Assembly: GCF_000027125.1 (NCBI RefSeq)
Contig: NC_017626.1
Source of the DNA: Escherichia coli 042
GTDB lineage: Bacteria; Pseudomonadota; Gammaproteobacteria; Enterobacterales; Enterobacteriaceae
Length of the DNA stretch: 64,000 nt
Reading direction: 5' to 3' (one strand)
A model generated the notes under the pieces. The model was given only the letters and a program-made list of their open reading frames with translations. It did no database searches and was not told where the DNA came from. Each line of letters starts with the position of its first letter. Positions within the stretch are counted from its first letter, which is position 1. Positions 1,812 through 59,921 of this stretch are shown piece after piece. Made by a program: the position numbers and the translations under genes.

Positions 1812-1815
1812 AGAA

Positions 1816-4688: not shown

Positions 4689-5101
4689 TAGCGTTGATGA
4701 TTGTCCAGCAAAATGTCAAATTCAAACACTCCCCTGGTTTCGCTGACATCGACCGTAGCCACAATATGAAAACGTAGTTCCACAGGGGCGTATTCATCCG
4801 GTGCCGCAGCCGTAACAACAACATCGGTAATACGAGGTTCGTAATGTAAAATGCACTGGCTAATGGACTTACGGATTTCTCGTCTGAAATCGCTGGAGGC
4901 CAGCGATTCATCATTTAAATCAGTAATCCCCAGCTCTGGTGAGCCATAACAACTGCCGGAGCGGGTATTCAGGACCTGTCGCAGGTTACGTCTGATGGAA
5001 CGTATCAGTGCTTCTTTTGTATTCTGGTATGAAGGCGGGTTGGCCGCCTCACGAATACGTTCAAAAAGACTGCTGGTTGGCCCTGAATCCCGTCTTTGCA
5101 T
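4676..5101 (-). CDS. tssE: T6SS baseplate subunit TssE (gp25-like)
   Basis: 141-aa ORF immediately after tssC; gp25/GPW-like small protein by size and sequence character. Confidence 0.8.
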   Translation of the reverse strand: MQRRDSGPTSSLFERIREAANPPSYQNTKEALIRSIRRNLRQVLNTRSGSCYGSPELGITDLNDESLASSDFRREIRKSISQCILHYEPRITDVVVTAAAPDEYAPVELRFHIVATVDVSETRGVFEFDILLDNHQRYCVE

Positions 5102-5105
5102 CTGA

Positions 5106-6590: not shown

Positions 6591-6612
6591 ACTGAAAATC
6601 CTTCTGTGAAAA

Positions 6613-7116
6613 TTATTTCTGAGCGGCGATACCCAGTTCTTGGATCAGCTGCTCGCGGCTGTCTTCGTTTTCCAGTAGCGCCTGAAGTTGTGCGCGGAAG
6701 GCCGGAATATTGCCTAGTGGAGACTTAAGTGCGACCAGAGCTTCACGCAATTCGAGCAGACGTTTTATTTCTGGTACCTGGCTGGCAATATGGTCCGGAG
6801 AAAGGTCATCCATAGATTTGACTTTCAGGTTGACGTACATTTGCTCATTGGGAGCGTCACTGAGTTCAGCCGGAACAACAAACTCCCGTTCAATGTCAGC
6901 TTCTGAAATGACTGCGTTGAGGTTATAGCGGTTGATAGCAATGGCAGTTCGCTCGTCCAACGGCGTGTTATCTGGTTTCCCTTTCAGATTGCCGGTGATC
7001 AATAAATTCAGCGGCAATTCGATATCAGCAGCCACCCCATCAACTTTTGGTGTATACCGAACGCTGATTCTTTCTTTCGGCGCGACACTGCCGCCATTGT
7101 TGTTCATTTTGCTCAT
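6613..7116 (-). CDS. tssB: T6SS contractile sheath small subunit TssB (VipA)
   Basis: 167-aa ORF, first gene of the minus-strand operon, divergent from hcp. Confidence 0.9.
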   Translation of the reverse strand: MSKMNNNGGSVAPKERISVRYTPKVDGVAADIELPLNLLITGNLKGKPDNTPLDERTAIAINRYNLNAVISEADIEREFVVPAELSDAPNEQMYVNLKVKSMDDLSPDHIASQVPEIKRLLELREALVALKSPLGNIPAFRAQLQALLENEDSREQLIQELGIAAQK

Positions 7117-7818
7117 AAAAATGTTCCCGTTCAGGCCATGAGCACAGCATTTTCGTACTGCATAAAAATACCGAAGATACCGTTTCAGTGGCAGTTAGAT
7201 AATGTAACCTTCCTTCTGTTGTGATCGGTATTCTACTCATGAAATAAAATATTAAAAGAACTATTTATATTTTAGAAAGAGATGTATTCTTCCTTGCTAA
7301 TATATTATAGTGAAATAAATTTTGGTATTTATAGACTTGATGAATATGATTTTACGGTCAATAAAATGCCATAATATATTGATTTATATGTATTTATTAA
7401 ATTTATTAATAAGTTTTATGTATGGTTTTATCAATTGATTAATTGCTGGCAATACATCATAAGGAATTCCTTTAAGGAATGTCTTAATTGCGTGCTGGAA
7501 CGATGGCTGAGTAAGTGTCGTAATAATTTGTTTTTGACGCGGCTGTGGATTTTTATGGGGGGAAGGATACGTTATGGATAATTCTGCTGTTGAAGTTGAT
7601 ATATTTTTAGCTTATGTGACCGTGTTCTGAAATTGACTAAAAATATATTTAAACACCATAAAAGAGTTTTTCAGTAGGTGCTAATTACGTGTGCCTGTAA
7701 CTCGAATAAAGAAAAGGGTGTGGTTCCTGATGTGAGCCGCATCACACTCTAACCCGTCGGGGATTAACGACGGGTTGTTCGTAAAACAGCAGTTGATAAT
7801 TTCACAAGGAGTTCATAA
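7117..7818. promoter_or_regulatory. AT-rich ~700 bp divergent control region between tssB and hcp
   Basis: No credible ORF; very low GC compared with flanking genes; contains a single GATC (about 7224) and the palindrome AAGGAATTCCTT (about 7463-7474); must hold promoters for both divergent operons. Confidence 0.5.
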
Positions 7819-8337
7819 ATGCCAACCCCATGTTACATTTCAATTACAGGTCAGACCCAGGGGAACATCACTGCCGGTGCTTTCACCGCAGATTCTGTCG
7901 GCAATATCTACGTGCAGGGACACGAAGATGAAATGCTGGTGCAGGAGTTTCTGCATAACGTTACTGTTCCAACCGATCCACAGTCTGGTCAACCTTCCGG
8001 GCAGCGCGCGCACAAACCGTTCATTTTCACCGTGGCGCTGAACAAAGCCGTTCCGCTGCTGTACAACGCGCTGGCCTCCGGTGAAATGCTGCCGAAAGTG
8101 GAGCTGCACTGGTGGCGTACTTCAGTTGAAGGCAAGCAGGAGCACTACTTCACCACACGTCTTACTGACGCGACGATTGTGGACATGAACCTGCACATGC
8201 CGCACTGCCAGGACCCTGCACAGCGTGAGTTTACGCAATTGCTCGCAGTATCACTGGCATACCGTAAGGTTGAGTGGGAGCACATCAAATCCGGTACTTC
8301 TGGTGCCGATGACTGGCGTGCACCGCTGGAAGCATAA
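7819..8337 (+). CDS. hcp: T6SS inner tube protein Hcp
   Basis: 172-aa ORF with Hcp-family character; RBS AAGGAG 8 nt upstream; strong terminator downstream. Confidence 0.9.
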   Translation: MPTPCYISITGQTQGNITAGAFTADSVGNIYVQGHEDEMLVQEFLHNVTVPTDPQSGQPSGQRAHKPFIFTVALNKAVPLLYNALASGEMLPKVELHWWRTSVEGKQEHYFTTRLTDATIVDMNLHMPHCQDPAQREFTQLLAVSLAYRKVEWEHIKSGTSGADDWRAPLEA

Positions 8338-8348
8338 ATCTGAGTCAA

Positions 8349-8385
8349 CAACATCCTGCCTTCGTGCAGGATGTTGTTTTTGTAC
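8349..8385 (+). terminator. Rho-independent terminator after hcp
   Basis: Stem ACAACATCCTGC / GCAGGATGTTGT with 6-nt loop followed by TTTTT. Confidence 0.6.
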
Positions 8386-8557
8386 GTGTAAAAAATGAGT
8401 GTCAGTAAGGAGTTACGCTTTCATGAGGGAGATGGCGGATGCCGGAAACCCGGGCGGTAGCGTACCTGAAAATGTAAAGATGAGTGTAACGCTGCACTGG
8501 CACCCTTTGCTGCATGGTAAGAATCATTTGGTCCGTGAATAAATCAGGGAGGTCATT

Positions 8558-10516
8558 ATGTCCTTAAAAGGTCTGCGCTTTACGCTGGAGATTGACGGCC
8601 AGGAGCCGGACACCTTTGCAGTGGTGCATTTCAGGTTAATCCAGAACCAGTCTTATCCGTTTGTGATGAGTGTGGATGTTGCCAGCGACTCTTTTATGCA
8701 GACGGCGGAGATGCTGCTGGAGAAGAAGGCGACGCTGACCATCTGGCAGGGCGTCATCCCGCTGCGTTATGTCACCGGCGTGGTGGCGGGTTTTGGCATG
8801 CAGGAGAACAATGGCTGGCAGATGCGTTATCACCTGCGTATTGAGCCGCCGTTATGGCGGTGCGGGCTGCGGCAGAACTTCCGTATCTTCCAGCAGCAGG
8901 ATATCCGGACGATATCGGCCACGTTACTGAACGAGAACGGCGTCACGGAGTGGACACCGCTGTTTTATGAGGACCATCCGGCGCGGGAGTTCTGTGTCCA
9001 GTACGGGGAAAGCGACCTGGCGTTTCTGGCGCGGTTGTGGGCGGAGGAGGGAATTTTCTTCTTTGAGCGGTTTGCGGCGGACAGTCCGGAGCAGAAGCTG
9101 ACGCTGTGCGACGATGTGGCGGGGCTGTCACAGGCGGGAGAGCTTCCGTTTAACCCGGACACATCGGCAGGAGCGGAGACAGAGTGTGTCAGTATGTTCC
9201 GTTATGAGGCGTATGTCCGCCCGTCGTCGGTGCAGAGCCAGGATTACACGTTTAAGGTGCCGGACTGGCCGGGGATGTATGAGCAGCAGGGTGAGAACCT
9301 GAACGGACAGCTGGAGCAGTATGAGATATTTGATTATCCGGGAAGGTTCAAGGATGAACAGCACGGCAAGGATTTCACGCTGTACCAGATGGAGAGCCTG
9401 CGCAGTGATGCGGAAAAGGCCACAGGGCAGAGTAATTCACCGAAGCTGTGGCCGGGAACGCGGTTTACGCTGACGGGGCATCCGCAGAAGATGCTGAACC
9501 GTGAATGGCAGGTGGTACAGAGTATTCTGTCAGGGGACCAGCCGCAGGCGCTGCACGGCAGCCAGGGGAGAGGAACCACGCTGGGAAATCAGTTAGAGGT
9601 GATACCGGCGGACCGGACGTGGCGTCCACGGCTGCAAAGCAAACCGAAGGTGGACGGGCCACAGAGCGCCATTGTCACCGGTCCTGCGGGAGAGGAAATC
9701 TTCTGCGACGAACACGGACGTGTGCGAGTGCAGTTTCACTGGGACAGGTATAACCCGGCAACGGAGGCGAGTTCATGCTGGGTGAGGGTGTCGCAGGCGT
9801 GGGCGGGGCCGGGATTTGGTAACCTGGCGATACCGCGCATCGGCCAGGAAGTGATTGTAGACTTCCTGAACGGCGACCCGGACCAGCCGATAATCATGGG
9901 GCGGACGTACCATGAGGACAACCGTTCGCCGGGGAGTCTGCCGGGGACGAAGACGCAGATGACGATACGGTCGAAGACCTATAAAGGAAGCGGCTTTAAT
10001 GAACTGCGGTTCGAGGACGCGACGGACAAGGAAGAAATTTACCTGCACGCACAGAAAAATATGCAAGTCGTTGTGCTGAACAGCAAGGATAAGCGGGTCA
10101 ACTATGACCGGACGGTCAGCATCGGGCATGATGAATCCCTGGTGGTGGCAAATGACCGGAAAGTGACGGTTGAAGGTAAACAGGACCATAAAACCACCAA
10201 AGACCATGTCAGCCTGACAGAGGGCAATCAGGGGCTGGAGGTGAAAGGCGATCTGGCACAGAAAATAAGCGGCGCGCTGGGTATCAGCGTACAGGGCGAT
10301 ATTGTTTTACAGAGCGACAGCAAAATCAGTCTGCGGGTGGGCGGTTCATTTGTGGTGATCCATTCCGGCGGCGTGGATATTAAGGGCGCGAAAATCAATC
10401 TTAACGGCGGAGGCAGTCCGGGAGACGTGATCCTGCCGATGCGCCCGGTGATCCTGAAAGCCGCAGCCGGAAGCGGGACAATGTTTGTGGCGCACTGCCC
10501 GAAGGAGGATAAGTGA
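8558..10516 (+). CDS. vgrG: T6SS spike protein VgrG (core gp27/gp5-like, no long C-terminal extension)
   Basis: 652-aa ORF with VgrG character including the C-terminal repetitive beta-helix region (VVLNSKDKRVNYDRTVSIGHDESLVVANDRKVTVEG...). Confidence 0.9.
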   Translation: MSLKGLRFTLEIDGQEPDTFAVVHFRLIQNQSYPFVMSVDVASDSFMQTAEMLLEKKATLTIWQGVIPLRYVTGVVAGFGMQENNGWQMRYHLRIEPPLWRCGLRQNFRIFQQQDIRTISATLLNENGVTEWTPLFYEDHPAREFCVQYGESDLAFLARLWAEEGIFFFERFAADSPEQKLTLCDDVAGLSQAGELPFNPDTSAGAETECVSMFRYEAYVRPSSVQSQDYTFKVPDWPGMYEQQGENLNGQLEQYEIFDYPGRFKDEQHGKDFTLYQMESLRSDAEKATGQSNSPKLWPGTRFTLTGHPQKMLNREWQVVQSILSGDQPQALHGSQGRGTTLGNQLEVIPADRTWRPRLQSKPKVDGPQSAIVTGPAGEEIFCDEHGRVRVQFHWDRYNPATEASSCWVRVSQAWAGPGFGNLAIPRIGQEVIVDFLNGDPDQPIIMGRTYHEDNRSPGSLPGTKTQMTIRSKTYKGSGFNELRFEDATDKEEIYLHAQKNMQVVVLNSKDKRVNYDRTVSIGHDESLVVANDRKVTVEGKQDHKTTKDHVSLTEGNQGLEVKGDLAQKISGALGISVQGDIVLQSDSKISLRVGGSFVVIHSGGVDIKGAKINLNGGGSPGDVILPMRPVILKAAAGSGTMFVAHCPKEDK

Positions 10517-11355
10517 TGGAAACGGCACCCGTGCAGTACGCCATTGTGGATGGCGCTGTGGAGGAAGGATTGCTGGATTTTCTGAACGAGGTGAATCCCC
10601 CGCACTGTTGTCTGTATGCAGAACCCATACAACTGGATCTGGTCGCGCTAGCCCCCTATCTCGTGGAAGTCGTTCCGGAGGTTGAAGCATGGCTGAGTGT
10701 TAAGGCGTCGCCATGGGGAATATATCTGACTTCTGAGTCATCCATGCGTGAGCTACAGCAACACTTCAGACGTTATCTGTGGGTTAGGATCCCCGAACAG
10801 GAGAAACCTGTTCTCATGCGATTTTATGATCCCCGGAATATATGGGTATTAGTGGAAGTTCTGACCCCCCGCCAGCGTCTTTCTTTTATCAGTCCCGTCA
10901 GACAGCTAAGTACCCGTTATGGTGAAGAATGTCGTGAGGATAATTTTTCTTCCGTCCGTCCCGCAGAAACTATGAATATAAGGGCAGAACGGCCATCACA
11001 ACTGACGCTGAGTTACAGACAATATAGCCAACTGGAACGAAAGGCACGGGATAATTATCTTGATATATTATCTGCATTTATCGAAGAAAATGTAGATAAA
11101 AACGGATGGGATGATTCATCAAAAGCTGAATCATCCCGAATTCTGGCAGAAGATTATTTCTCTTTTTGCCAGTCATTAAATATAGCAGATGATCGTTCCG
11201 TCAGAACAATGACGCTTATATTACTGAAAAAAAATATAATCGATCTCAGATATATTCCGGATGACTGGTATGAACAACTCAGCAATCAGTCATACCCGGG
11301 ACATATTCGGGTACATGAACTTGCACAACAGGAACTGGGATTTATCCCACAATAA
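10516..11355 (+). CDS. DUF4123-family T6SS effector adaptor/chaperone
   Basis: Start overlaps the vgrG stop; sequence character (YAIVDGA...LAPYLVE...LMRFYDPRN) matches DUF4123 adaptors that load cargo onto VgrG. Confidence 0.75.
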   Translation: METAPVQYAIVDGAVEEGLLDFLNEVNPPHCCLYAEPIQLDLVALAPYLVEVVPEVEAWLSVKASPWGIYLTSESSMRELQQHFRRYLWVRIPEQEKPVLMRFYDPRNIWVLVEVLTPRQRLSFISPVRQLSTRYGEECREDNFSSVRPAETMNIRAERPSQLTLSYRQYSQLERKARDNYLDILSAFIEENVDKNGWDDSSKAESSRILAEDYFSFCQSLNIADDRSVRTMTLILLKKNIIDLRYIPDDWYEQLSNQSYPGHIRVHELAQQELGFIPQ

Positions 11356-11376
11356 AAAGACAAACGGATAGATTAT

Positions 11377-12948
11377 ATGACATCTCCATCTTCGACAGCC
11401 GGAAAGCCCTGTGTGGAATGCGGCATTCCTGATCCATGTATTTTTGATGTTATTAGTGATTTTCCAGAGGCCGGCGAGAAACATTTCTGGTCAAAAGAAG
11501 GAGTGGCGCGTTTTAAGCTACTGGATGATGGTTCCGGATGTGATGGTATAATTACCATTACCTACCAGTGCGATAAAAGTGGAACACATGAGGCATGGTT
11601 AGAGGAAGAATCAGAAAATAATCATAAGATACTGCAACCTTTCGGAATACCTAATAAGGTCACTTTGGATGATAACTTGTCTGAAGGTGAAATAATTGCT
11701 ATGGGTACATTTCGAGTACCATGGGATTATTTGGGGGCAATATCCTCTCCACTTAAGAATCATTATGAACCTGCCCATTATTCAGTCAGAATTGACAGTT
11801 GTTACGAATGTGGCAATTATGTTGAAATTGATGTTTATCCTACAGTGGAAATTAGGTTTACTACAGGGTTCAGCTATGAGATTTCGTCATCAAAACAGAC
11901 GAGAACAGTAAAAGAGCGGCGTGACGAAAGAATAAAAGCCAGGGACGCAATGGAGAACACCAAGCCCAGGGATAAAAATAAACTCCGTAGCGGCTGGACA
12001 AATACCACTGCTGAGTTTGAGTGGATAAACAAGACTTCCCTGACTGTCGATTTTGGCGTAAAAATAGCTAATGTTGAACACACAAGTGAATATGAAAAAG
12101 AGATAAAAAAACTTCGACAAACAAAGCAACTGGAACAGATAGGAAGAATTGACTCTCTGGTCAAGAATGTCAATAAATATTTTGCGCCAGATCCTGACAA
12201 TAATAATGGTACGCGCAAATATGCATTGTTCAGTGCAAAAATAGAACCCGTTAAACTGGGTATATCGTATGCCTATCAATATACCGATATCCAGGATGGC
12301 CCCTGTCATTTTTATGGTTTGTTTGGTGCCCCATTTTTTGAAGCGTCGTTCAGATTCGATATTATTTCATTTATATGTGCATATTGTAAAGTCGAGTCAT
12401 TGGTCAACAGATGTCGTGAATATCTCCGTAAAAACGGAGCCAGTGTTGAATGCTATATCGAGATTTCAGCGGAGATTAATCTTGATCTTGGCGCAGTATA
12501 CGCTGAAAAGGATAAAAAATGGGAGTTTAATGTAAAGGAAAGTAACATCAAGCTCGGTTTAAAAGGTGTGGTGAGTGCGACGTTTGAGGCGAATGTTTTT
12601 GTTGTACAACTGACCGCCGAAGCGACTGCCTCTATAGAAGCGAAAGCTGGATTTGGATTTGATTCACATGATGACGGACTGGACCTAGCATTATTTCATG
12701 ACGGCATTAAAGGGAAGTTTGAATTTAAGATTGATGTGTCTCATGGTGAAGTTGATGAAAAAGGAAAGGGGAAGGAAAAGAGCGAAAAACCTGAGAAGAA
12801 AGATACCGTTGAGTGGCAGTTATGTGATCCTATGGAGGTAAAGGATTCACCATTACGGGTTAATTTATACGGTAAAGAACGCACTGTGGAGAAAAAAGTA
12901 ACACCGCCGAAGCCAGTGACAACGTGGACGATAGGTATGGATTATTAA
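11377..12948 (+). CDS. Candidate VgrG-delivered T6SS effector, family not recognised
   Basis: 523-aa AT-rich ORF immediately after vgrG and DUF4123; Cys-rich N-terminus (CVECGIPDPC), Lys/Glu-rich C-terminus; no GxSxG or HxKxxxxD motif seen. Confidence 0.45.
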   Translation: MTSPSSTAGKPCVECGIPDPCIFDVISDFPEAGEKHFWSKEGVARFKLLDDGSGCDGIITITYQCDKSGTHEAWLEEESENNHKILQPFGIPNKVTLDDNLSEGEIIAMGTFRVPWDYLGAISSPLKNHYEPAHYSVRIDSCYECGNYVEIDVYPTVEIRFTTGFSYEISSSKQTRTVKERRDERIKARDAMENTKPRDKNKLRSGWTNTTAEFEWINKTSLTVDFGVKIANVEHTSEYEKEIKKLRQTKQLEQIGRIDSLVKNVNKYFAPDPDNNNGTRKYALFSAKIEPVKLGISYAYQYTDIQDGPCHFYGLFGAPFFEASFRFDIISFICAYCKVESLVNRCREYLRKNGASVECYIEISAEINLDLGAVYAEKDKKWEFNVKESNIKLGLKGVVSATFEANVFVVQLTAEATASIEAKAGFGFDSHDDGLDLALFHDGIKGKFEFKIDVSHGEVDEKGKGKEKSEKPEKKDTVEWQLCDPMEVKDSPLRVNLYGKERTVEKKVTPPKPVTTWTIGMDY

Positions 12949-13014
12949 GTGATATTACAGAAATTAAAAGTGAACAGTATAATGAGTATTTTCCCCTTTT
13001 GAGAGAGAATAATT

Positions 13015-14025
13015 ATGAAGGCAAAACATTTAATATCGGTTATTTTACTGTCAGGAGTTGTTATGGGAACTGGATTTTGCTCTAACGATAACCAGCAAAA
13101 AATTCGCAGTAAGTTTAATATTGAAGAGTCATATTGTGCCATTAAGACTAATGGCGTCCTCGGGTTCAGTAACCGAAGAAGTGCCTGGCGGGCAAATGGT
13201 GATTCAACCGGGGCCATATCCAGCACCAATGCCATGATGCTGATGGCGAATGGAGAAAATGAAATCAGTCTGGAGATTGGGGCATTAGGATGGTTTTCTG
13301 ACAAGCCTGCCAGTATGGAAGAACGGGGGCGTTTTTTTCCAAAAGCAGGATGCAGCCTGGATTTGGTTCGTTTTATTAAACAGGAGGAAACGCTGCTTTC
13401 TTCAATAAAAGTGACCATCAACCAGCAGGGCATACCTGAAGCCCGGCCAGACAGCGTGCATCCCGTTATCCGGAAAGAGATTTTGGCTGAGCAGGCGGAG
13501 CCAGGATTTATTGATCCAGATTATTTTGATGAAACCTATTTCCCGAAAGGGATGAAGGTGTATCAGTTCACTCAAAAAGTTACCGTGACAGGGCTTCCTG
13601 AATGGGCCTGGACGCGGGCAACCCCCTATACCGGAAGCGACGAGCAGTTACGGAAGTTAAAAGCCGCCTATACCGAAATGGCAAGCATCATCAGTAGCCG
13701 GGACAGGGCACGTCTGAAAGCTTATAACAAAGAGGCGCTGAAGGCATGGTCAGCCACAACCGGTGACTCTGAGGATGACATATTACTCTCACTCTTCTCA
13801 AAAGATAATGTGGAGGGAGGGAAAGCCAGAATGCAGCCCATCAGGTGGGACGATTATGCCGTCCGGGTTATGAATGGTGGACGTATGGTGCAGCTATATA
13901 ATAAATCGAAACCAATATATTCCCCACTGACTTACCGTTTTACAGATGAAAGTGGTGAAGAGCGTATGGGGTATTACGCTCCGGTATTTTCGCTGATTGA
14001 TGGTCAGTTTATCCCTGTTACTTGA
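13015..14025 (+). CDS. Exported protein, candidate cognate immunity protein
   Basis: 336-aa ORF with N-terminal signal peptide and a Cys after the hydrophobic core (MGTGFC); sits directly downstream of the candidate effector. Confidence 0.4.
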   Translation: MKAKHLISVILLSGVVMGTGFCSNDNQQKIRSKFNIEESYCAIKTNGVLGFSNRRSAWRANGDSTGAISSTNAMMLMANGENEISLEIGALGWFSDKPASMEERGRFFPKAGCSLDLVRFIKQEETLLSSIKVTINQQGIPEARPDSVHPVIRKEILAEQAEPGFIDPDYFDETYFPKGMKVYQFTQKVTVTGLPEWAWTRATPYTGSDEQLRKLKAAYTEMASIISSRDRARLKAYNKEALKAWSATTGDSEDDILLSLFSKDNVEGGKARMQPIRWDDYAVRVMNGGRMVQLYNKSKPIYSPLTYRFTDESGEERMGYYAPVFSLIDGQFIPVT

Positions 14026-14098: not shown

Positions 14099-14334
14099 AA
14101 ATTTTTTGTCGCTGATATTCCAGACAGGAAAACAATATGCCTTTAGCTGCCAGATTAAACGACAAAGGTACCGGCACAGGGAAAGATCACGTAACGCTGC
14201 TTTTTTGTACTAAATAATTCGCATTTTATGTTTAAAATTTGAGATATTCCTCATTACCTGAGGCTGTTTTTTATTACTTATACATGATCAAATACTCCTT
14301 ACATAATTAAGGGGAACAAAATGGAACTTAAAAA

Positions 14335-15262
14335 TTGATGGAACATATTTCTGTTATTCCCGATTACAGACAAGCCTGGAAAGTGGAACATAAATTGTCG
14401 GATATTCTACTGTTGACTATTTGTGCCGTTATTTCGGGTGCAGAAGGTTGGGAAGATATAGAGGATTTTGGGGAAACACATCTCGATTTTTTAAAACAAT
14501 ACGGTGATTTTGAAAATGGTATTCCTGTTCACGATACCATCGCCAGAGTTGTATCCTGTATCAGTCCTGCAAAATTTCACGAGTGCTTTATTAACTGGAT
14601 GCGAGATTGCCATACTTCAGATGATAAAGACGTCATCGCAATTGATGGAAAAACGCTCCGGCACTCTTATGACAAGAGTCGCCGCAGGGGAGCGATTCAT
14701 GTCATTAGTGCGTTCTCAACAATGCACAGCCTGGTCATCGGACAGATCAAGACGGATGAGAAATCCAATGAGATTACAGCTATCCCAGAACTTCTTAACA
14801 TGCTGGATATTAAAGGAAAAATCATCACAACTGATGCGATGGGTTGCCAGAAAGATATTGCAGAGAAGATACAAAAACAGGGCGGTGATTATTTATTCGC
14901 TGTAAAAGGAAATCAGGGGCGGCTTAATAAAGCCTTTGAGGAAAAATTCCCACTGAAAGAATTAAATAATCCAGAGCATGACAGTTACGCAATGAGTGAA
15001 AAGAGTCACGGCAGAGAAGAAATCCGTCTTCATATTGTTTGCGATGTCCCTGATGAACTTATTGATTTCACGTTTGAATGGAAAGGACTGAAGAAATTAT
15101 GCGTGGCAGTCTCCTTTCGGTCCATAATAGCAGAACAAAAGAAAGAGCCAGAAATGACGGTCAGATATTATATCAGTTCTGCTGATTTAACCGCAGAGAA
15201 GTTCGCCACAGCAATCCGAAACCACTGGCACGTGGAGAATAAGCTGCACTGGCGTCTGGACG
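14335..15262 (+). CDS. ISAs1-family transposase, exon 1 (reading frame interrupted by the group II intron)
   Basis: Near-identical to the intact copy-B transposase up to ...HWRLD; one base fewer than copy B in the A-run near the start codon region. Confidence 0.8.
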
Positions 15263-17153
15263 GTGTGCCGCAGGAACACAAGATAGCTGCATAAGGATAC
15301 GCAGTTAGCTTTTGTATAAGCTCATAAAGAGATGGTGGAAGGCCCACCGGGATCGGCTGTCGGAAGCAGATTCCAAACCACTTCATGCTGCTGTGGTAAA
15401 GAGCCATGGTAGTGAGCGATGAAGTAAAGCGTGAGTGAAAACTCAGCAGGTAAGATACTCATGAGACGAGTGAACCCGAACCCATGTTGACGCGTCGTAA
15501 ACCAGAGACTGACATCAAAACCGAAGGGGCGTCCAGCCTTCGGGATAAGTCTGCGAGTGAATTCCGAATGCTGCGCAGACGGTGTCCGGCGTAAAGTGGG
15601 CGTGACGGAGTATCAGGCTCTTCCTGGGAACTGCGGGAACCTGTCGTTGTGATGATAAGGGAGAAATGCAAGTCACTGAATTGGCGAGCATGAAAGTACC
15701 GATGCACAGCACAGGGACGGAGCCGTTCGTAGTAGTGATGAAGCTTCTGTAATGGAGGTGGAGCGAAGGGGCGGCATCAGACAGTCTTTGGACAGTGTTC
15801 AACTGAACATGTTCAGGAGGAGACAATGACAAAGACAAAAGCGTTTAACATTGATAAGTCACTGGTGGTCAGCGCGTACAGGCGAGTGAAGACCAGTGCA
15901 GGCGCGGCGGGAATTGATAAGCAATCGCTGGCGGACTTTGATAAACGGTTAGTTGATAATCTGTACAAAATCTGGAACCGACTTTCTTCAGGAAGTTATT
16001 TCCCACCGGCAGTGAAAGCGGTGGCAATTCCGAAGAAATTGGGTGGAGAGAGAATTCTGGGTATCCCGACAGTCAGCGATCGTATCGCGCAGACGGTGGT
16101 AAAACTGGCCTTTGAGCCACAGGTTGAGCCACATTTTCTGGCAGACTCTTACGGCTACAGACCGAATAAATCGGCACTGGATGCTATAGGGGTAACGCGT
16201 AAGCGTTGCTGGTATTACGACTGGGTACTGGAATTTGACATCAAAGGGCTGTTCGATAACATCCCGCACGAACTGATAATGAAAGCCGTGGACAAACACA
16301 ATCCGGCCCGGTGGGTAAAATTGTATATACAGCGGTGGCTGACAGCGCCGATGGTGATGTCAGACGGAGAAGTCAGAGCACGAACAATGGGAACGCCGCA
16401 GGGAGGTGTCATAAGTCCGTTGCTGGCAAACCTGTTCATGCATTATGTGTTTGATAAATGGCTGGCAAAATATTATCCGAAAGTGCCGTGGTATCGATAT
16501 GCTGATGATGGCATTTTGCATTGTCACAGCGAAGCAGAAGCGACTGAAATGCGAGAAGTATTACGCAAAAGATTTAGCGAATGCGGACTGGAAATGCATC
16601 CGGAGAAAACGCGAGTTATCTACTGCAAAGATGGAAGCCGGAAGGGTGATTATGAACATACCATGTTCGACTTTCTGGGGTACACATTCAGGCGACGCGT
16701 AGTAAAGAACGTTAAGCGAAACAGTCTGTTTGTAAGTTTTACCCCCGCAGCGAGCAAATCAGCGCTAAAGGCAATGCGTCGGGAAATCAAAGCGACAGGG
16801 ATAAGGAAAAGAGTGGATTTAAGCATTGAGCAGATAGCGAAATGGATAAATCCAAAACTGAATGGCTGGATAAATTATTACGGGCGATATACCTGTTCGG
16901 AATTATACAGCGTGTTCAGATATATCAATAAAGCACTGGTGAGGTGGGGGCGTAAGAAATATAAAATGCTCAGCCGATACAAGACAAGAGCCTCAAAATT
17001 TCTGGAAGAAATGGCGAAGCGAAGTCCACAGTTGTTTGCCCACTGGCGTCTGAAGATGAGAGGCGGACTTGTTTGATGGGAGCGGTATGAGCCGAGAGGT
17101 TCACGTACCGTTCTGCGAGAGGCTGCGGGGGAGGTTCCTGCGGCCTACTCACC
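15263..17153 (+). mobile_element. Group II intron, same orientation as the host transposase gene
   Basis: Exactly fills the gap between the copy-A junction CTGGACG|TGGTAATG and the uninterrupted copy B; starts GTGTG; encodes an RT/maturase; a domain V-like hairpin (GAGCCGAGAGGTTCACGTACCGTTC) lies near the 3' end. Confidence 0.8.
15826..17076 (+). CDS. Group II intron-encoded reverse transcriptase/maturase
   Basis: 416-aa ORF with RT motifs ([10 protein letters not shown], the YADD box in [12 protein letters not shown]) and a C-terminal maturase-like region. Confidence 0.9.
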
Positions 17154-17347
17154 TGGTAATGAATGAAGACGACTGCAAAATAAGAAGAGGAAATGCAGCA
17201 GAATTATTTTCAGGGATACGGCACATCGCTATTAATATTTTGACGAATGATAAGGTATTCAAGGCAGGGTTAAGACGTAAGATGCGAAAAGCAGCCATGG
17301 ACAGAAACTATCTGGCGTCAGTCCTTGCGGGGTGCGGGCTTTCGTAA
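17154..17347 (+). CDS. ISAs1-family transposase, exon 2 (C-terminal segment)
   Basis: Translation [64 protein letters not shown] matches the C-terminus of copy B. Confidence 0.75.
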
Positions 17348-17378: not shown

Positions 17379-18669
17379 CAGGGAAAGATCATCAGAAGTA
17401 CACTTTTTGTACTAAACAATTCGCATTTTATGTTTAAAAATTGAGATATTCCTCATTACCTGAAGCTGTTTTTTATTGCTTATACATGATCAAATACTCC
17501 TTACATAATTAAGGAGAACAAAATGGAACTTAAAAAATTGATGGAGCATATTTCTATTATCCCCGATTACAGACAAGCCTGGAAAGTGGAACATAAATTA
17601 TCGGATATTCTACTGTTGACTATTTGTGCCGTTATTTCTGGTGCAGAAGGTTGGGAAGATATAGAGGATTTTGGGGAAACACATCTCGATTTTTTGAAGC
17701 AATATGGTGATTTTGATAATGGTATTCCTGTTCACGATACCATTGCCAGAGTTGTATCCTGTATCAGTCCTGCAAAATTTCACGAGTGCTTTATTAACTG
17801 GATGCGTGACTGCCATTCTTCAGATGATAAAGACGTCATTGCAATTGATGGAAAAACGCTCCGACACTCTTATGACAAGAGTCGCCGCAGGGGAGCGATT
17901 CATGTCATTAGTGCGTTCTCAACAATGCACAGCCTGGTCATCGGACAGATCAGGACGGATGAGAAATCTAATGAGATTACAGCTATCCCTGAACTTATTA
18001 ACATGCTGGATATTAAAGGAAAAATCATCACAACTGATGCGATGGGTTGCCAGAAAGATATTGCAGAGAAGATACAAAAACAGGGAGGTGATTATTTATT
18101 CGCTGTAAAAGGAAACCAGGGGCGGCTAAATAAAGCCTTCGAGGAAAAATTTCTGCTGAAAGAATTAAATAATCCAGAGCATGACAGTTACGCAATTAGT
18201 GAAAAGAGTCACGGCAGAGAAGAAATCCGTCTTCACATTGTTTGCGATGTCCCTGATGAACTTATTGATTTCACGTTTGAATGGAAAGGTCTGAAGAAAT
18301 TATGCGTGGCAGTCTCCTTTCGGTCAATAATAGCAGAACAAAAGAAAGAGCCCCAAATGACGGTCAGATATTATATCAGTTCTGCTGATTTAACCGCAGA
18401 GAAGTTCGCCACAGCAATCCGAAACCACTGGCACGTGGAGAATAAGCTGCACTGGCGTCTGGACGTGGTAATGAATGAAGACGACTGCAAAATAAGAAGA
18501 GGAAACGCAGCAGAATTATTTTCAGGGATACGGCACATTGCTATTAATATTTTGACGAATGATAAGGTATTCAAGGCAGGGTTAAGACGTAAGATGCGAA
18601 AAGCAGCCATGGACAGAAACTACCTGGCGTCAGTCCTTGCGGGGAGCGGGCTTTCGTAATCTTGCCCTG
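17379..18669 (+). mobile_element. ISAs1-family (H-repeat) insertion sequence, copy B (intact)
   Basis: Same terminal inverted repeats as copy A; single uninterrupted transposase ORF. Confidence 0.8.
17523..18659 (+). CDS. ISAs1-family (H-repeat-associated) transposase
   Basis: 378-aa ORF; recognised H-repeat protein family. Confidence 0.9.
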
Positions 18670-27569: not shown

Positions 27570-27655
27570 GACGGATAAGGCGTTCACGCCGCATCCGGCA
27601 ATAGTGCACCGATGCCTGATGCGACGCTGCCGCGTCTTATCATGCCTACGAGTCT
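27568..27655. repeat. REP elements
   Basis: GGATAAGGCGTTCACGCCGCATCCGGCA ... TGCCTGATGCGACGCTGCCGCGTCTTATCATGCCTAC. Confidence 0.8.
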
Positions 27656-27745
27656 GCGAATTTTTTGCGAGCTGCTTTCCCGATATAACACAACTTCATT
27701 GTCGACTTTTCCTTTTCTTCTTATCGTTGAGAAAAAGGAGTCGCC

Positions 27746-28243
27746 ATGTCTGAATATCGTCGTTATTACATCAAGGGGGGAACATGGTTTTTCACGGTAC
27801 ATTTACGGAATCGTCGAAGCCAACTTTTGACCACCCAGTACCAGACACTCCGTAACGCCATTATTAAAGTTAAGCAGGCCAGACCTTTTGAAATTAACGC
27901 CTGGGTAGTTTTGCCAGAGCATATGCACTGTATCTGGACATTACCCGAAAGTGATGATGATTTTTCCTCTCGCTGGCGGGAGATTAAAAAGCAGTTCACC
28001 CATGCTTGCGGATTGAAAAATATCTGGCAACCGCGTTTTTGGGAGCATGCCATTCGCAATACAAAAGATTATCGCCATCATGTTGATTATATTTATATAA
28101 ATCCAGTGAAACATGGCTGGGTAAAGCAGGTGAGTGATTGGCCATTCTCAACGTTCCATCGCGATGTAGCGCGAGGGTTATATCCCATTGATTGGGCGGG
28201 AGACATAACGGATTTTAGTGCCGGGGAGCGTATTATTTTATAA
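27746..28243 (+). CDS. rayT: REP-associated tyrosine transposase RayT (TnpA-REP, YafM)
   Basis: 165-aa ORF with the IS200/IS605-like HxH region (LPEHMHCIW) and catalytic Tyr region; recognised as rayT. Confidence 0.9.
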   Translation: MSEYRRYYIKGGTWFFTVHLRNRRSQLLTTQYQTLRNAIIKVKQARPFEINAWVVLPEHMHCIWTLPESDDDFSSRWREIKKQFTHACGLKNIWQPRFWEHAIRNTKDYRHHVDYIYINPVKHGWVKQVSDWPFSTFHRDVARGLYPIDWAGDITDFSAGERIIL

Positions 28244-41320: not shown

Positions 41321-41755
41321 ATGCGACAAATCATCGACACCCTCGCGCAGTTGCAGCGCCTGCGGGATAAATCGGTCAAAGACAAAACTGTCGAGCTGGC
41401 AAAGCAAAAACAGATCTGCGCGGGCTATGACAACAATATTAAGGCGTTAGGCTACCTGGTAGAGAAAACGTCTGCGGGCGCGGCGGCGTCGGTGGAATCG
41501 CTGAAAAACGTCAGCGGCTACAAAGGCACCCTGCGCAAGGTGATCGCCTGGCAGGAACAGGAAAAAACGCTGGCTAACATCAAAGCCACGCGAATGCAGA
41601 AAAACCTGACGGCGGCGGCGTGCGAAGAGAAAGTGGTGGCCCTGACGCTGGACGACAAACGCCGCGAGCAGCAGGAAAGCGCCACGGCGAAAGCGCAAAA
41701 AGCGGTGGATGACATTGCCGTTCAGTGCTGGCTACGGCATAAATTAGCGGAGTAG
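41321..41755 (+). CDS. lfiJ: Lateral flagellar export chaperone FliJ homolog
   Basis: 144-aa coiled-coil-type ORF following fliI. Confidence 0.8.
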   Translation: MRQIIDTLAQLQRLRDKSVKDKTVELAKQKQICAGYDNNIKALGYLVEKTSAGAAASVESLKNVSGYKGTLRKVIAWQEQEKTLANIKATRMQKNLTAAACEEKVVALTLDDKRREQQESATAKAQKAVDDIAVQCWLRHKLAE

Positions 41756-41757
41756 CG

Positions 41758-42162
41758 ATGAAAACGGTCATCACCTTCGGCACCTTTGATGTGTTTCACG
41801 TCGGTCATCTGCGCCTTTTACAACGCGCCCGCACGCTGGGCGAACGGTTGCTGGTCGGCGTATCGTCCGATGCCCTGAACATCGCCAAAAAGGGCAGGGC
41901 ACCGGTTTACCATCAGGATGACCGCATGGCGATCATCGCCGGGCTGGCGTGCGTGGAGGGCGTATTTCTGGAGGAATCGCTGGAGCAGAAAGCGGAGTAT
42001 TTGCGGGGGTACGGTGCGGATATTTTGGTGATGGGCGATGACTGGGCGGGGAAGTTTGACGATTTCTCGTGTGTCTGTGAGGTGGTCTATTTTCCCCGTA
42101 CGCCATCGGTATCGACGACGGAGATTATTGAGGTGATTAGGGGTAAATCAGCCACCTACTGA
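41758..42162 (+). CDS. Glycerol-3-phosphate cytidylyltransferase-like protein (TagD-like)
   Basis: 134-aa ORF with the cytidylyltransferase signature TFGTFDVFHVGHLRLL (HxGH) and C-terminal RTPSVSTTEII. Confidence 0.8.
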   Translation: MKTVITFGTFDVFHVGHLRLLQRARTLGERLLVGVSSDALNIAKKGRAPVYHQDDRMAIIAGLACVEGVFLEESLEQKAEYLRGYGADILVMGDDWAGKFDDFSCVCEVVYFPRTPSVSTTEIIEVIRGKSATY

Positions 42163-42217
42163 TTTAATTCCCGCGGTGAGAGAAGATGATGCCGTCTGCC
42201 GTTTGGCTATGTTAAAT

Positions 42218-42320
42218 ATGTTTAAAAAATCGCGTTTTTTCGACATATCCCCAAAACATGTCGATGGCATAAACGTATTCCAACGACATGTTTAAAAATC
42301 GCATTTTATCGACATATCCC
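42218..42320. repeat. Two direct copies of a ~33-bp hairpin-forming element between the convergent transferase genes
   Basis: ATGTTTAAAAAATCGCGTTTTTTCGACATATCCCC (about 42218-42252) and ATGTTTAAAAATCGCATTTTATCGACATATCCC (about 42288-42320); each has an A-run/T-run hairpin core. Confidence 0.6.
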
Positions 42321-56832: not shown

Positions 56833-57810
56833 ATGCAGGTCGGACTTACATCTTCGTCACTCGCCACCGGCGGCGCGCATAGCGCTGCGGTATCGTCGTC
56901 AACCGTTGCGCCCACTCAGGCGGTGCGGCAAAAACTCCCGGCGACGGCGAGTGAATATCCGGCCTCGCCGCTGATTACCACTCGCCCGCAGCGTTACAGC
57001 GTGCAGCTTAACGACCAGCTCACCACGTTGCAGCAGGCGGATCACTATCTCGGGCAACTGGAGCAGCAGTTGCTCGATTATCGTCACAGCCAGCGCAAAG
57101 GCGGGCAGGCGCAGAGTTCGGCGCTGATGCAGATGCTGGACAAACGCACCGCGCTTTCCGGCGGTGCGGTGGACCGCCAGTTGCAGCCAGTGTTGCAGGG
57201 GGAAGCGCGGGTGACTTTTCACTCGCCGGATCTGGCGAATCTGGTACACAATCCCACGCCGGGAACGCGCATGTTCAGCGTCTCTGACGGGCGGCAGACT
57301 CAGCTTTCGGCGGTGATGCTGTCTGAGGATGACAGCGCTGGGCAGTACCAGACGCGGCTGACCAACGCCCTGCGCCGCGTGGGCGTGCAGATGCATCAAA
57401 ACGCCGATGGTATAAGTTTCTCCACCACTGAAAAACAGTGGCCCAACATTGAAAGCACCCTAAGCGTGCGCACCGATGGTGATAAATCAGCGTTTATGCC
57501 ACTAAAAACCTTTGCCGAACCGTCGCAGGCGGACCGCTTAGTGCAAAGCCTGCAACAGGGCGGAGCGGGGATTTCTCAGACGTTAGAAAGCATTAATCAG
57601 CAGCGTGTGCAGATGGCGGTACAGCAGGAAAAGGCGCGGCAGTTGATCGACGGCATGTCGCGCTTCCCGCAAACGGAAAGCGCCGTGCAGGCGTCGGAAA
57701 ATCTCGGCGGCGTGCTGGATAGCGCCAATCATAACTATCAGGTTTTATTGCAGGCGGTGAACGGTCAGGCGCGAATTTCCAGCCAGACGGTGAGGAGTTT
57801 ATTGGGTTAG
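56833..57810 (+). CDS. Hypothetical flagellar-cluster protein (possibly the Flag-2 gene named lafW; assignment from memory, unverified)
   Basis: 325-aa Gln/Ala/Ser-rich ORF directly after flgL; no recognisable catalytic motif. Confidence 0.5.
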   Translation: MQVGLTSSSLATGGAHSAAVSSSTVAPTQAVRQKLPATASEYPASPLITTRPQRYSVQLNDQLTTLQQADHYLGQLEQQLLDYRHSQRKGGQAQSSALMQMLDKRTALSGGAVDRQLQPVLQGEARVTFHSPDLANLVHNPTPGTRMFSVSDGRQTQLSAVMLSEDDSAGQYQTRLTNALRRVGVQMHQNADGISFSTTEKQWPNIESTLSVRTDGDKSAFMPLKTFAEPSQADRLVQSLQQGGAGISQTLESINQQRVQMAVQQEKARQLIDGMSRFPQTESAVQASENLGGVLDSANHNYQVLLQAVNGQARISSQTVRSLLG

Positions 57811-57831
57811 GGTTATTGTCATTGTTGCTTT

Positions 57832-57872
57832 TATAGCTATTAAGCTATAGTTTATCTATAGCATAAAAGCTA
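57832..57872 (+). promoter_or_regulatory. Palindromic operator-like repeats upstream of the toxin gene
   Basis: TATAGCTAT / AAGCTATAG / TCTATAGCA / AAGCTAT: four ATAGC/GCTAT half-sites in about 40 bp immediately 5' of the toxin ATG. Confidence 0.45.
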
Positions 57873-57882
57873 TGAGGGACCG

Positions 57883-58227
57883 ATGATGTGGGACGTCGAG
57901 ACAACGGAGACTTTCGACAACTGGTTTGATGCCCAGACTGTTGCGCTGAAAGAAGATTTACTTGCTGCAATGCTGATTCTTGCTGAGTATGGCCCACAGT
58001 TGGGCAGACCCTTTGCGGATACGGTTAATGATTCACAGTTTTCAAATATGAAAGAATTACGCGTCCAACATCAGGGAAACCCGGTACGTGCTTTTTTTGC
58101 TTTCGATCCTGCGCGCCGTGGCATTGTATTATGTGCGGGTGATAAAACGGGGTTAAATGAGAAAAAGTTTTATCGCGATATGATCAAGCTCGCTGATTCT
58201 GAATACCGTAAGCATCTGAAAAAGTAA
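57883..58227 (+). CDS. RelE/ParE-superfamily toxin (HigB-like, toxin-first arrangement)
   Basis: 114-aa ORF (MMWDVETTETFDNWFD...GPQLGRPFADT...KELRVQHQGNPVRAFFAFDPARRGIVLCAGDKTG) matching the addiction-module killer protein family. Confidence 0.7.
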   Translation: MMWDVETTETFDNWFDAQTVALKEDLLAAMLILAEYGPQLGRPFADTVNDSQFSNMKELRVQHQGNPVRAFFAFDPARRGIVLCAGDKTGLNEKKFYRDMIKLADSEYRKHLKK

Positions 58228-58236
58228 GGAACGATA

Positions 58237-58536
58237 ATGGCTACTCTAAAAGAACTGATGGCAAAGCAAAGCCCTGAAAGCCAGGCGCGTATTGCGGCAA
58301 AAGTTGAGGAAATGCGCCAGACCATCGCCTTGCATCAGCTGAGAGAAGAACTCAATATTTCGCAAACGGAAATGGCGGCAGCGATGGGCATTAAGCAACC
58401 GACTCTTGCAAAAATGGAGCAGGCAGATAACGATCCTCGGTTGTCTACGCTAAAACGCTATGTTGCGGCTTTAGGTGGGGAATTGAGTATCGACGTTAAA
58501 CTGCCGAATGGTAAGAGAATTGCATTTCAGATTTAA
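58237..58536 (+). CDS. HTH (XRE-type) antitoxin, HigA-like
   Basis: 99-aa ORF 10 nt after the toxin gene; HTH region ELNISQTEMAAAMGIKQPTLAKME. Confidence 0.7.
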   Translation: MATLKELMAKQSPESQARIAAKVEEMRQTIALHQLREELNISQTEMAAAMGIKQPTLAKMEQADNDPRLSTLKRYVAALGGELSIDVKLPNGKRIAFQI

Positions 58537-58593
58537 TTTTGGGGTGCATTTTATGAACCGGATTAGATAAAACGGTATCTAATCCGGTAAACA

Positions 58594-59487
58594 TCAGCAT
58601 TTCTGCACAGTATTTAACAACTTCTCTAAATTCTGATACATCGCGCTATTAATATCGCTATTCTGCCAGCTATCCACATTAAAAGTTAATTGCCAGCTAC
58701 CGTTGCACTGGTTGCGCAGAACAATATCACTCTCCAGTCGGTTACGAACATATTTATAATAGGTTGTCATTGTCATATTATGCGCTGACAATAAATTATC
58801 GAGTTTGTCTTTTCCTGGTGCGAGGGTTTGTGACAGTAACGGTACGGAATTATTTTCCTTTCCAGAACTAAGATGAAATATTTTTATTCTTGGACTGTTA
58901 ATTGACTCTTTTACCAGTTGCGGGGCGTCAGGTGTACTTTTCAAGTGTGAATACCCCACGGTTGAGCCAACCAATATAACAGCTGCGGCCAACGCTAACC
59001 CCATCAGTCCTTTATGTTTTTTTCTAACAGGCACATACGGTGTTGTCGAAGATATCTCTTCTGGGGCTGTATCCTGTATCTGGTCGGTAATAATCAGCGC
59101 TTCTGCAGGCGATGACTCCGGCAAAGACACATACTCTTTATTGCATAAGTAACCTTTCTTCGGAATTGTTTTAATAATGTTCTGTTGTTTGCCATCATCG
59201 TCGATAGCAACGCGCAACGCATGGATCGCCGTCGGCAGGCTGTTTCCGCCGACAATACGGTTCTTCCATACTTCGGCACATAAATAAGATCGCGATAAAA
59301 CCACATCGGCATTTTTTGCTAATGTTTCCAGCAAAATAAAATGGTATTCGCCGAGACGACGTGTTTCACCCGTTTCGCAATGTATTAAGGCATTAAGCGA
59401 CGGGTCCATCCGCCAGTTGTTGATAATAATACTCATAGTTGAGTTTACCTTAGCAAGGGATAAATGTTTCCTGATAGTGCTTTGCAT
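58594..59487 (-). CDS. lafZ: ToxR/CadC-like single-pass membrane transcriptional regulator
   Basis: N-terminal OmpR-type winged-helix region, central TM helix GLMGLALAAAVILVGSTVGY, periplasmic C-terminus; AT-rich; alternative start MSIIINNW at 59436. Confidence 0.6.
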   Translation of the reverse strand: MQSTIRKHLSLAKVNSTMSIIINNWRMDPSLNALIHCETGETRRLGEYHFILLETLAKNADVVLSRSYLCAEVWKNRIVGGNSLPTAIHALRVAIDDDGKQQNIIKTIPKKGYLCNKEYVSLPESSPAEALIITDQIQDTAPEEISSTTPYVPVRKKHKGLMGLALAAAVILVGSTVGYSHLKSTPDAPQLVKESINSPRIKIFHLSSGKENNSVPLLSQTLAPGKDKLDNLLSAHNMTMTTYYKYVRNRLESDIVLRNQCNGSWQLTFNVDSWQNSDINSAMYQNLEKLLNTVQKC

Positions 59488-59921
59488 AAAGCACAGTCTT
59501 ATACGTCCCTGAGAAGATGATTTTTCTGCGTGATAATTAATATTTTATGGTGATAAGATTATTCTTAATCACTATATAGCGTGGAAATGTAACGAAATGA
59601 CAGGACAGGTACAATAGCCAAATGTGTACTATTTGCAACGCAATGTAAATTTTGGCATCAGTACATTGAGAACAAAACGCGATAATTGATGACAATCTTA
59701 ACTATATCAAGCGTTTGATAAAGACATATTTTGATACCTGGCCATGTGGCAGATATTGCTAATAATCTTTTTATCTGAATTTAAACTCTGCTTTTTTTAG
59801 CTAAAAGTGGCATCGGATAATACGTGGCGAAAAAATTATAACGGCGATTTTAAGTTTGCTCCTGAGGTGTCGTTTTTACAGGGTATCGAAACGAAAACGA
59901 TTAATCCCAAGGAGCAGTATC

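Follow-up and report, generated by a model that had tools for sequence, protein, structure and literature searches.

Probable HigBA-type toxin-antitoxin cargo of the Gp49 subfamily between lafW and lafZ in the Flag-2 locus of Escherichia coli

The Gp49 family of the RelE/ParE superfamily consists of toxins whose genes precede those of their antitoxins (toxin-first order), and its members, including HigB1, HigB3 and Tad, degrade mRNA in a ribosome-dependent manner (PMC11980606). The closest experimentally tested relatives of the system considered here are carried on plasmids. The HigB toxin of IncC plasmids is a ribosome-dependent endoribonuclease whose toxicity is abolished by the substitution G64V, and together with its antitoxin it forms an effective addiction module (Qi, Kamruzzaman and Iredell 2021, PMC8265657). 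HigB2 of the Acinetobacter baumannii plasmid pAB120 degrades RNA in vitro, an activity that its antitoxin blocks, and both the antitoxin and the complex of the two proteins repress the promoter (Armalyte et al. 2018, PMC5906591). Addiction has been demonstrated for both systems (PMC8265657, PMC5906591). We analysed a 64-kb stretch of DNA (the window) that corresponds to the Flag-2 (lateral flagella) region of Escherichia coli, and in particular two small genes located in the interval between lafW and lafZ. This pair is very probably an intact type II toxin-antitoxin (TA) operon of the HigBA type and of the Gp49 (Tad-Ata) subfamily, and constitutes non-flagellar cargo of variable region 2 (VR2) of the locus, with a mechanism that we infer from its homologues.

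That a TA pair occupies this position is already known, as the same genes are found at the same place in enteroaggregative E. coli 042, for which strain the pair has been noted in print (Archer et al.). The lafW-lafZ interval has been described as VR2, a hotspot for cargo (De Maayer et al. 2020, PMC6993521). Table S3 of that study records a ‘ParE’ toxin of 113 aa and a ‘HipB1’ antitoxin of 99 aa among the VR2 genes of 46 Escherichia strains; the protein lengths and the host agree with those of the Flag-2 pair. The pair was apparently included even in the original 042 submission, since the accessions of LafW (CAH19144) and LafZ (CAH19147) leave exactly two accession numbers between them. The antitoxin has the UniProt name Q5DY05_ECOLX. 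Because the locus has been described and the family is well characterized, two homologues (56-60% identity) having been studied biochemically, the value of the pair as a discovery is low. What is now defined are its putative operators and the exact limits of the insert.

An earlier note on this DNA, made without database searches, had proposed a HigB/HigA-like module in which a RelE/ParE-superfamily toxin gene is followed 10 nt later by an XRE helix-turn-helix (HTH) antitoxin gene. The higB-like toxin gene (57886..58227, + strand) encodes 113 amino acids when read from the ATG at 57886 that was chosen by the NCBI Prokaryotic Genome Annotation Pipeline (PGAP). The complete open reading frame (ORF1) spans 57883..58227 and has an alternative ATG at 57883, but the second ATG is better spaced; the Shine-Dalgarno sequence, GAGGGA, is at 57874-57879 (+). 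The higA-like antitoxin gene (ORF2; 58237..58536, +) encodes a 99-aa XRE HTH protein and is preceded by a Shine-Dalgarno sequence, AAGGAA (58226-58231, +), that shares bases with the stop codon of the toxin gene. In an ORF scan the two genes are co-directional, with a gap of 9 nt (58228-58236) from the toxin stop to the antitoxin ATG, which begins at the tenth base after the stop, roughly in agreement with the earlier figure. PGAP names the products ‘type II toxin-antitoxin system RelE/ParE family toxin’ and ‘helix-turn-helix domain-containing protein’. The toxin-first order, the tight spacing and the palindromes upstream together make up a HigBA layout, and the proposed architecture therefore holds.

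The profile searches agree with the note on both proteins. ORF1 matches Gp49 (PF05973), a toxin family of the RelE/ParE superfamily rather than a non-toxin one, with an E-value of 1.4e-20 over model positions 1-89 of 90, and PF05973 is likewise found in 120 of the 120 toxin homologues listed. No other toxin family was matched in this Pfam scan at E <= 0.001. ORF1 also matches a PHROG annotated as ‘toxin’ (2e-22). An AlphaFold2 model built on an 80-sequence alignment (pLDDT 96.3, pTM 0.89) predicts that the toxin has the RelE/ParE (BECR) fold. In a Foldseek search of the PDB, the best matches to this model were Streptococcus pneumoniae HigB (6af4/6af3, TM 0.69), Vibrio cholerae HigB2 (5jaa) and the archaeal and E. 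coli RelE proteins (1wmi/4fxe). Furthermore, the toxin carries all positions that are at least 90% conserved in 80 diverse members of the family, with the near-invariant residues R41, P42, K56, E57, L58, R59, R68, F73, D74, R77, K87 and Y96 all present, and its G64 aligns without gaps with the essential G64 of IncC HigB.

ORF2 matches the Pfam families HTH_3 (2e-12) and HTH_31 (7.5e-8), and also HTH_37. Its closest solved relatives by sequence are HigA3 and HigA2 of Mycobacterium tuberculosis and HigA of S. pneumoniae, so that the HTH_3 match and the HigA structures together bear out its reading as an XRE-HTH antitoxin. As the toxin fold matches HigB and the antitoxin matches HigA structures, the two proteins point independently to the same kind of complex.

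The same cassette, with equal gene lengths and the same 9-nt gap, is present in at least two other chromosomal contexts. In Klebsiella and Citrobacter it lies between a DUF1198 gene (yicN) and a gene for a major facilitator superfamily (MFS) transporter, and in another enterobacterium, where the toxin is 83% identical, it lies in the iap-cysH intergenic region. Homology among the cassettes extends from about 10 bp upstream of the first of two palindromes to a few bases past the antitoxin stop codon. Between cassettes of different contexts, the proportion of nonsynonymous differences (pN) is 0.09-0.10 for the toxin and 0.07-0.09 for the antitoxin, against proportions of synonymous differences (pS) of 0.74-0.82 and 0.71-0.77, respectively. 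Because pS is saturated (0.7-0.8) while pN is only 0.07-0.10, both proteins must be under strong purifying selection.

The four ATAGC/GCTAT half-sites that the note had pointed out ahead of the pair are real, and they form two palindromes that would not be expected by chance. Each of these operator-like elements is 16 bp long and reads ATAGC-N6-GCTAT. Palindrome 1 (ATAGCTATTAAGCTAT, 57833-57848) overlaps the putative -10 hexamer, and palindrome 2 (ATAGCATAAAAGCTAT, 57858-57873) falls after this hexamer and before the ribosome-binding site. The centres of the two palindromes are 25 bp apart, and jointly they form a larger, 18-nt inverted repeat. In the window the motif occurs exactly twice, both times upstream of the toxin gene, where 0.04 occurrences are expected, and none of 100 shuffled sequences contained two or more. 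In the Klebsiella, Citrobacter and iap-cysH cassettes the half-sites are essentially invariant, while the spacers and the segment between the palindromes vary. Since synonymous sites between these same cassettes are saturated, the half-sites have been kept far beyond the neutral expectation. Conservation also indicates a likely sigma-70 promoter (57825..57851, +), consisting of TTGCTT (57825-57830), a 15-nt spacer and TATAGT (57846-57851): four cassettes, drawn from three genomic contexts that are unrelated, share the pattern TTG...TATA(G/A)T with identical spacing.

The note had placed the pair between the gene after flgL and lafZ and suspected an insertion, and comparison of this intergenic position across Flag-2 loci bears out both points. 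The flanking sequences were matched in 1,272 of 5,426 complete E. coli genomes, 71 of which carry the cassette, always once and always between lafW and lafZ. The remaining loci (about 94% of E. coli Flag-2 loci) lack the pair, and in them lafW is joined to lafZ by a spacer of about 50 bp that holds a hairpin of the repetitive extragenic palindromic (REP) type, GCCGGATAAGACGC...GCGTCGCATCCGGC; some strains have GTAG ahead of this hairpin. The cassette is thus an insertion, or more precisely a replacement of the REP-bearing spacer. Comparison by alignment to three empty sites, and also to the closest empty allele, delimits a block of about 785 bp (57806..58590), which takes up the whole of the lafW-lafZ spacer. 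It begins within the last lafW codon, giving this gene a TAG stop instead of TAA, and ends 3 nt short of the lafZ stop codon. With a GC content of 44-46%, the block is more AT-rich than lafW and the flagellar genes upstream (53-65% GC). Neither the annotation nor an inspection for repeats revealed a transposase, integrase, target duplication or terminal repeat associated with the block. Short repeats (GGGTTA GGGTTA at 57804-57815, and TTATTG on both sides) were considered as signs of transposition and dismissed as short and unconvincing.

The block varies little among the 71 complete genomes (99.6-100% identity), and a 60-nt piece at its right-hand side (58537-58596) is found in these genomes only. 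Several complete E. coli chromosomes, that of strain A10 among them, match a 1-kb stretch around the pair with 100% identity. The exact toxin protein is recorded in thousands of assemblies, and the context lfgK-lfgL-lafW-TA-lafZ-lafA was found in 29 of 29 contigs. The cassette goes with a single lafW allele group, in which 63 genomes are at least 99% identical. An ancestral presence in E. coli Flag-2 was considered and rejected, since the cassette does not occur outside this group: alleles of 98.3-98.7% identity are without it and have the REP spacer in common with distant alleles.

Domain families, gene order, conserved residues and operator-like palindromes, purifying selection and the presence/absence polymorphism are all seen directly in the sequence. 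Toxicity and its neutralization, cleavage of RNA, binding to the palindromes and any advantage for the host are inferred. By analogy with the homologues, the 113-aa toxin would be a ribosome-dependent mRNA endoribonuclease, which the 99-aa HTH antitoxin would bind and neutralize. The antitoxin, alone or with the toxin as co-repressor, would bind the two palindromes that straddle the promoter and so repress the operon. If the cassette were lost or antitoxin synthesis halted, free toxin would be expected to arrest growth, which on the chromosome would turn the block into a selfish element that is hard to delete. Such resistance to deletion, if real, could bias retention of the often-deleted Flag-2 locus in the 042-like lineage.

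Several points weigh against this interpretation. Experimental support is confined to homologues whose toxins are 56-60% identical. Even among these, addiction depends on context, since deletion of higBA2 did not destabilize the native pAB120 plasmid. Neither a sequence search of the PDB nor a profile search with the 80-sequence alignment gave a meaningful relative of the toxin, and the assignment of its active site therefore depends on family conservation and the predicted fold. A specific model of the toxin is missing from NCBIfam, as is one for lafW. The putative promoter combines a weak -35 hexamer with a short 15-nt spacer, and a simple consensus promoter scan reported no promoter upstream of the toxin gene. 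Finally, a copy on the chromosome may simply be tolerated without being of use. There it could play the role of a selfish addiction element, a stabilizer of the locus or a defence system.

The last of these roles leads to the alternative that survives best, although we consider it unlikely: that the pair has been selected mainly for anti-phage abortive infection, or for the exclusion of plasmids with related HigBA systems, and not for its own preservation. Phage defence is a role of many type II TA modules (reviewed in PMC11980606). Homologues are found on 1,982 plasmids in PLSDB, most of them conjugative, and in a few phages. The sister cassette in the iap-cysH interval occupies the region in which E. 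coli K-12 has its type I-E CRISPR-Cas locus, which suggests that defence or selfish cargo lands at this site repeatedly. PADLOC, too, gave a weak domain-level match to NsnC (E=1.6e-7) and to HTH_VI/control proteins. However, the NsnC match is partial, covering the C-terminal third of the profile (positions 191-291 of 294), the remaining matches are to generic HTH models, and the pair is not part of any curated PADLOC defence system. Moreover, the neighbouring genes are flagellar and do not form a defence island, and we found no phage data for this family in the TA literature consulted.

It is much less probable that the pair is a decaying, non-functional remnant of an old insertion. Degenerate chromosomal TA loci are common, and in strain 042 the Flag-2 locus itself has a frameshift in lfgC. 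Yet both ORFs are full-length, all family-conserved residues including G64 are present, the putative operators and the ribosome-binding sites are intact, and the near-identity of the block in the 71 genomes and the occurrence of the exact toxin in thousands of assemblies likewise speak against decay.

We regard it as very improbable that the toxin is a ParE-type poison of DNA gyrase, as the ‘ParE’ label in Table S3 of De Maayer et al. (2020) implies. The RelE/ParE superfamily does include gyrase poisons (PMC11980606), overexpression of IncC HigB leads to cell elongation (PMC8265657), and ParE2 and ParE1 structures are among the weaker fold matches of the toxin model. These ParE structures rank only 12-18, however, below HigB and RelE, and the Pfam scan gave no match to ParE_toxin (PF05016), Gp49 alone having passed the threshold. 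In addition, the closest toxin relatives that have been tested are RNases, and the order of genes is toxin-first, in contrast to the antitoxin-first order of the ParE family (PMC11980606). The HTH antitoxin, for its part, is neither a ParD/ribbon-helix-helix protein nor a Phd-type antitoxin. On these grounds we rejected the label ParDE. The label HipBA, which stems from the same table, was rejected as well: ORF2 scores 26.1 bits with the HipB model NF007271 against a cut-off of 79, it is paired with a Gp49 protein, and no gene for HipA lies nearby.

Equally remote is the idea of a domesticated pair, whose HTH protein would have taken on the control of Flag-2 genes, for instance lafZ, and whose toxin would be inactive or incidental. 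In favour of this idea, the pair adjoins, and converges with, the Flag-2 regulator gene lafZ, and two strong hairpins part the higA and lafZ transcription units. Against it, the window takes in the complete Flag-2 locus and yet holds no further copy of ATAGC-N6-GCTAT, most E. coli Flag-2 loci do without the pair, the same cassette is present as a unit in non-flagellar contexts, and purifying selection on the toxin is as strong as on the antitoxin.

A HigBA-type operon carried as VR2 cargo thus remains the reading that we favour, and its distribution beyond E. coli bears on how such a block moves. Two loci, one labelled E. albertii (GCA_049995945.1, L025) and one in GCA_025754005.1 (L024), carry the block at identical junctions, although their Flag-2 allele is distant from that of the window (lafW 91% and lafZ 85% identical). 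Over 57798-58599 these loci differ from the window at 13-15 of 802 positions (1.6-1.9%); the corresponding figure for the 400 bp on each side is 11.5-12.5% (Fisher p about 1e-12 to 1e-14). At either end of the block, the level of divergence changes within a distance of about 10 bp from the boundary. Because divergence is 1.6-1.9% in the block but about 12% in its flanks, the block is much younger than the divergence of the flanks. This pattern, in the two loci on which the case for exchange between species is based, is suggestive of a block that passed between Escherichia lineages as a discrete unit, or of flanks that were overwritten by resident alleles up to the heterology. The pattern of junctions and divergence in E. 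albertii is a modest addition to what is known, as we did not find it in the Flag-2 literature consulted.

The Klebsiella, Citrobacter and iap-cysH cassettes are not recent donors, since they are saturated at synonymous sites. The exact sequence of the hairpin described below as hairpin 2 was absent from 100,044 species-representative genomes and from the IMG/VR viral contigs, so that no donor was found there. We entertain only tentatively, and as improbable, the proposal that the block of about 785 bp, made up of promoter, operators, both genes and two hairpins, is a self-contained mobile unit that lacks a recombinase of its own. It would either enter by a targeted route (for example, one involving REP hairpins and RayT) or behave as a selfish allele that blocks homologous replacement; in the latter version, addiction would prevent the block from being replaced, while recombination would restore the native flanks right up to the heterology. 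A gene for a REP-associated tyrosine transposase, rayT (yafM; 27616-28113, +), is located just outside the lfhA end of Flag-2 in the annotation of strain A10 and may be relevant to REP turnover in the locus. As a block that displaced a REP-bearing spacer and was apparently exchanged between Escherichia species, the cassette offers a small, clean case for studying how a minimal TA cassette moves and persists.

The right-hand end of the block contains two hairpins. Hairpin 1 (58521..58548, +) extends over the higA stop codon, and UUUUAU comes after it; this terminator-like arrangement makes it a candidate terminator of the operon. Hairpin 2 (58557..58588) is a perfect 13-bp inverted repeat, ACCGGATTAGATA/TATCTAATCCGGT, with a 6-nt loop; it lies between the convergent genes higA and lafZ and is included in the 60-nt piece mentioned above. 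It occupies the place of the REP hairpin of the empty sites and is AT-rich, with a stem base that also reads CCGGAT...ATCCGG. Folded together, the two hairpins have a free energy of -32 kcal/mol (z = -6.35). A search of 57000-59800 against Rfam gave no RNA family.

In the PGAP annotation the order of genes is flgK, flgL, a hypothetical protein (lafW), the toxin, the HTH protein, a transcriptional regulator (lafZ) and lafA. The left flank, lafW (56833..57810, +), is the gene after flgL/lfgL and encodes a Flag-2-specific putative hook-associated protein; its PGAP names vary among ‘hypothetical protein’, ‘flagellar hook-associated protein’ and, implausibly, ‘FlhF’. The right flank, lafZ (58594..59487, -), is convergent with higA and encodes a membrane-anchored winged-helix regulator similar to CadC/ToxR. 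Its longest ORF has 297 codons for amino acids, and the PGAP start is 17 codons further in, at 59436 (280 aa). Both lafW and lafZ are unusually polymorphic in E. coli, and most lafW alleles are only 90-95% identical to that of the window (1,004 of 1,275 genomes), which is well below the identity typical of core genes.

Elsewhere in the window, VR1 (lfiJ-lfgN, about 41634-45762) also holds non-flagellar cargo: genes for a cytidylyltransferase (TagD-like), an 823-aa glycosyltransferase and a 309-aa hypothetical protein, which is consistent with the flagellin-glycosylation cargo described for VR1 (PMC6993521). Positions 1-13900 are occupied by a type VI secretion cluster, with tssJ, tagH and tssGFECB on the - strand and then hcp, after which come a truncated vgrG pseudogene, a gene for a DUF4123 adaptor and two hypothetical genes; the last two could be an effector-immunity pair. 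At about 14208-17217 (+), an ISAs1-family transposase gene is apparently split by a group II intron, according to the annotation of strain A10, with two partial transposase pseudogene pieces flanking an ltrA reverse transcriptase/maturase gene (15696-16946). An intact copy of ISEc1 adjoins at 17393-18529.

Among the known systems, HigBA (Tad-Ata) of IncC (IncA/C2) plasmids resembles the Flag-2 pair most in its toxin, which is 60% identical, while its antitoxin is 41% identical. The two systems share a toxin-first operon, a Gp49 toxin, an XRE antitoxin, G64 and paired palindromes upstream, which in the IncC system read ATAG-N8-CTAT. They differ in that the IncC pair is plasmid-borne and a proven addiction module, with operators 16 bp rather than 25 bp apart, whereas the Flag-2 copy is chromosomal and known from sequence. 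The IncC reference plasmid pEc158, which was used by Qi et al., is among the matches to the toxin with the same score. HigBA2 of A. baumannii pAB120 is 56% identical in the toxin and 54% in the antitoxin; we assign the Acinetobacter plasmid cassette among our matches to the pAB120-type higBA2 because it contains exact matches to three published primers where these are expected. Like the Flag-2 pair it has the reverse gene order, and an ATAGA-N6-TCTAT palindrome lies upstream, but its genes overlap, where those of the Flag-2 pair are separated by 9 nt, a single palindrome was seen instead of two, and it is carried on a small plasmid.

More distantly, the HigBA system of S. pneumoniae (6AF3/6AF4; PMC7984235) provides the best structural match to the predicted toxin, and its HigA is among the best matches to the antitoxin. 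At about 12% sequence identity between the toxins, however, the likeness is one of fold only. The canonical HigB proteins, namely E. coli K-12 HigB/YgjN (PF09907) and the HigB of Proteus vulgaris and V. cholerae (PF05015), share with the Flag-2 toxin the superfamily, the toxin-first order and an HTH antitoxin. They belong to other Pfam families, and neither PF09907 nor PF05015 appeared in the scan of ORF1 at E <= 10, so ‘HigBA’ here denotes the architecture and the Gp49 subfamily and not membership of PF09907 or PF05015. Finally, the VR2 pair of De Maayer et al. (2020) does not differ in substance from the pair analysed here. Its ParE/HipB labels are looser than a description as a Gp49-type HigB with an XRE HigA, and the loose labels of the Flag-2 literature can now be corrected to a Gp49-type HigBA module, an mRNA interferase by analogy with its characterized relatives.

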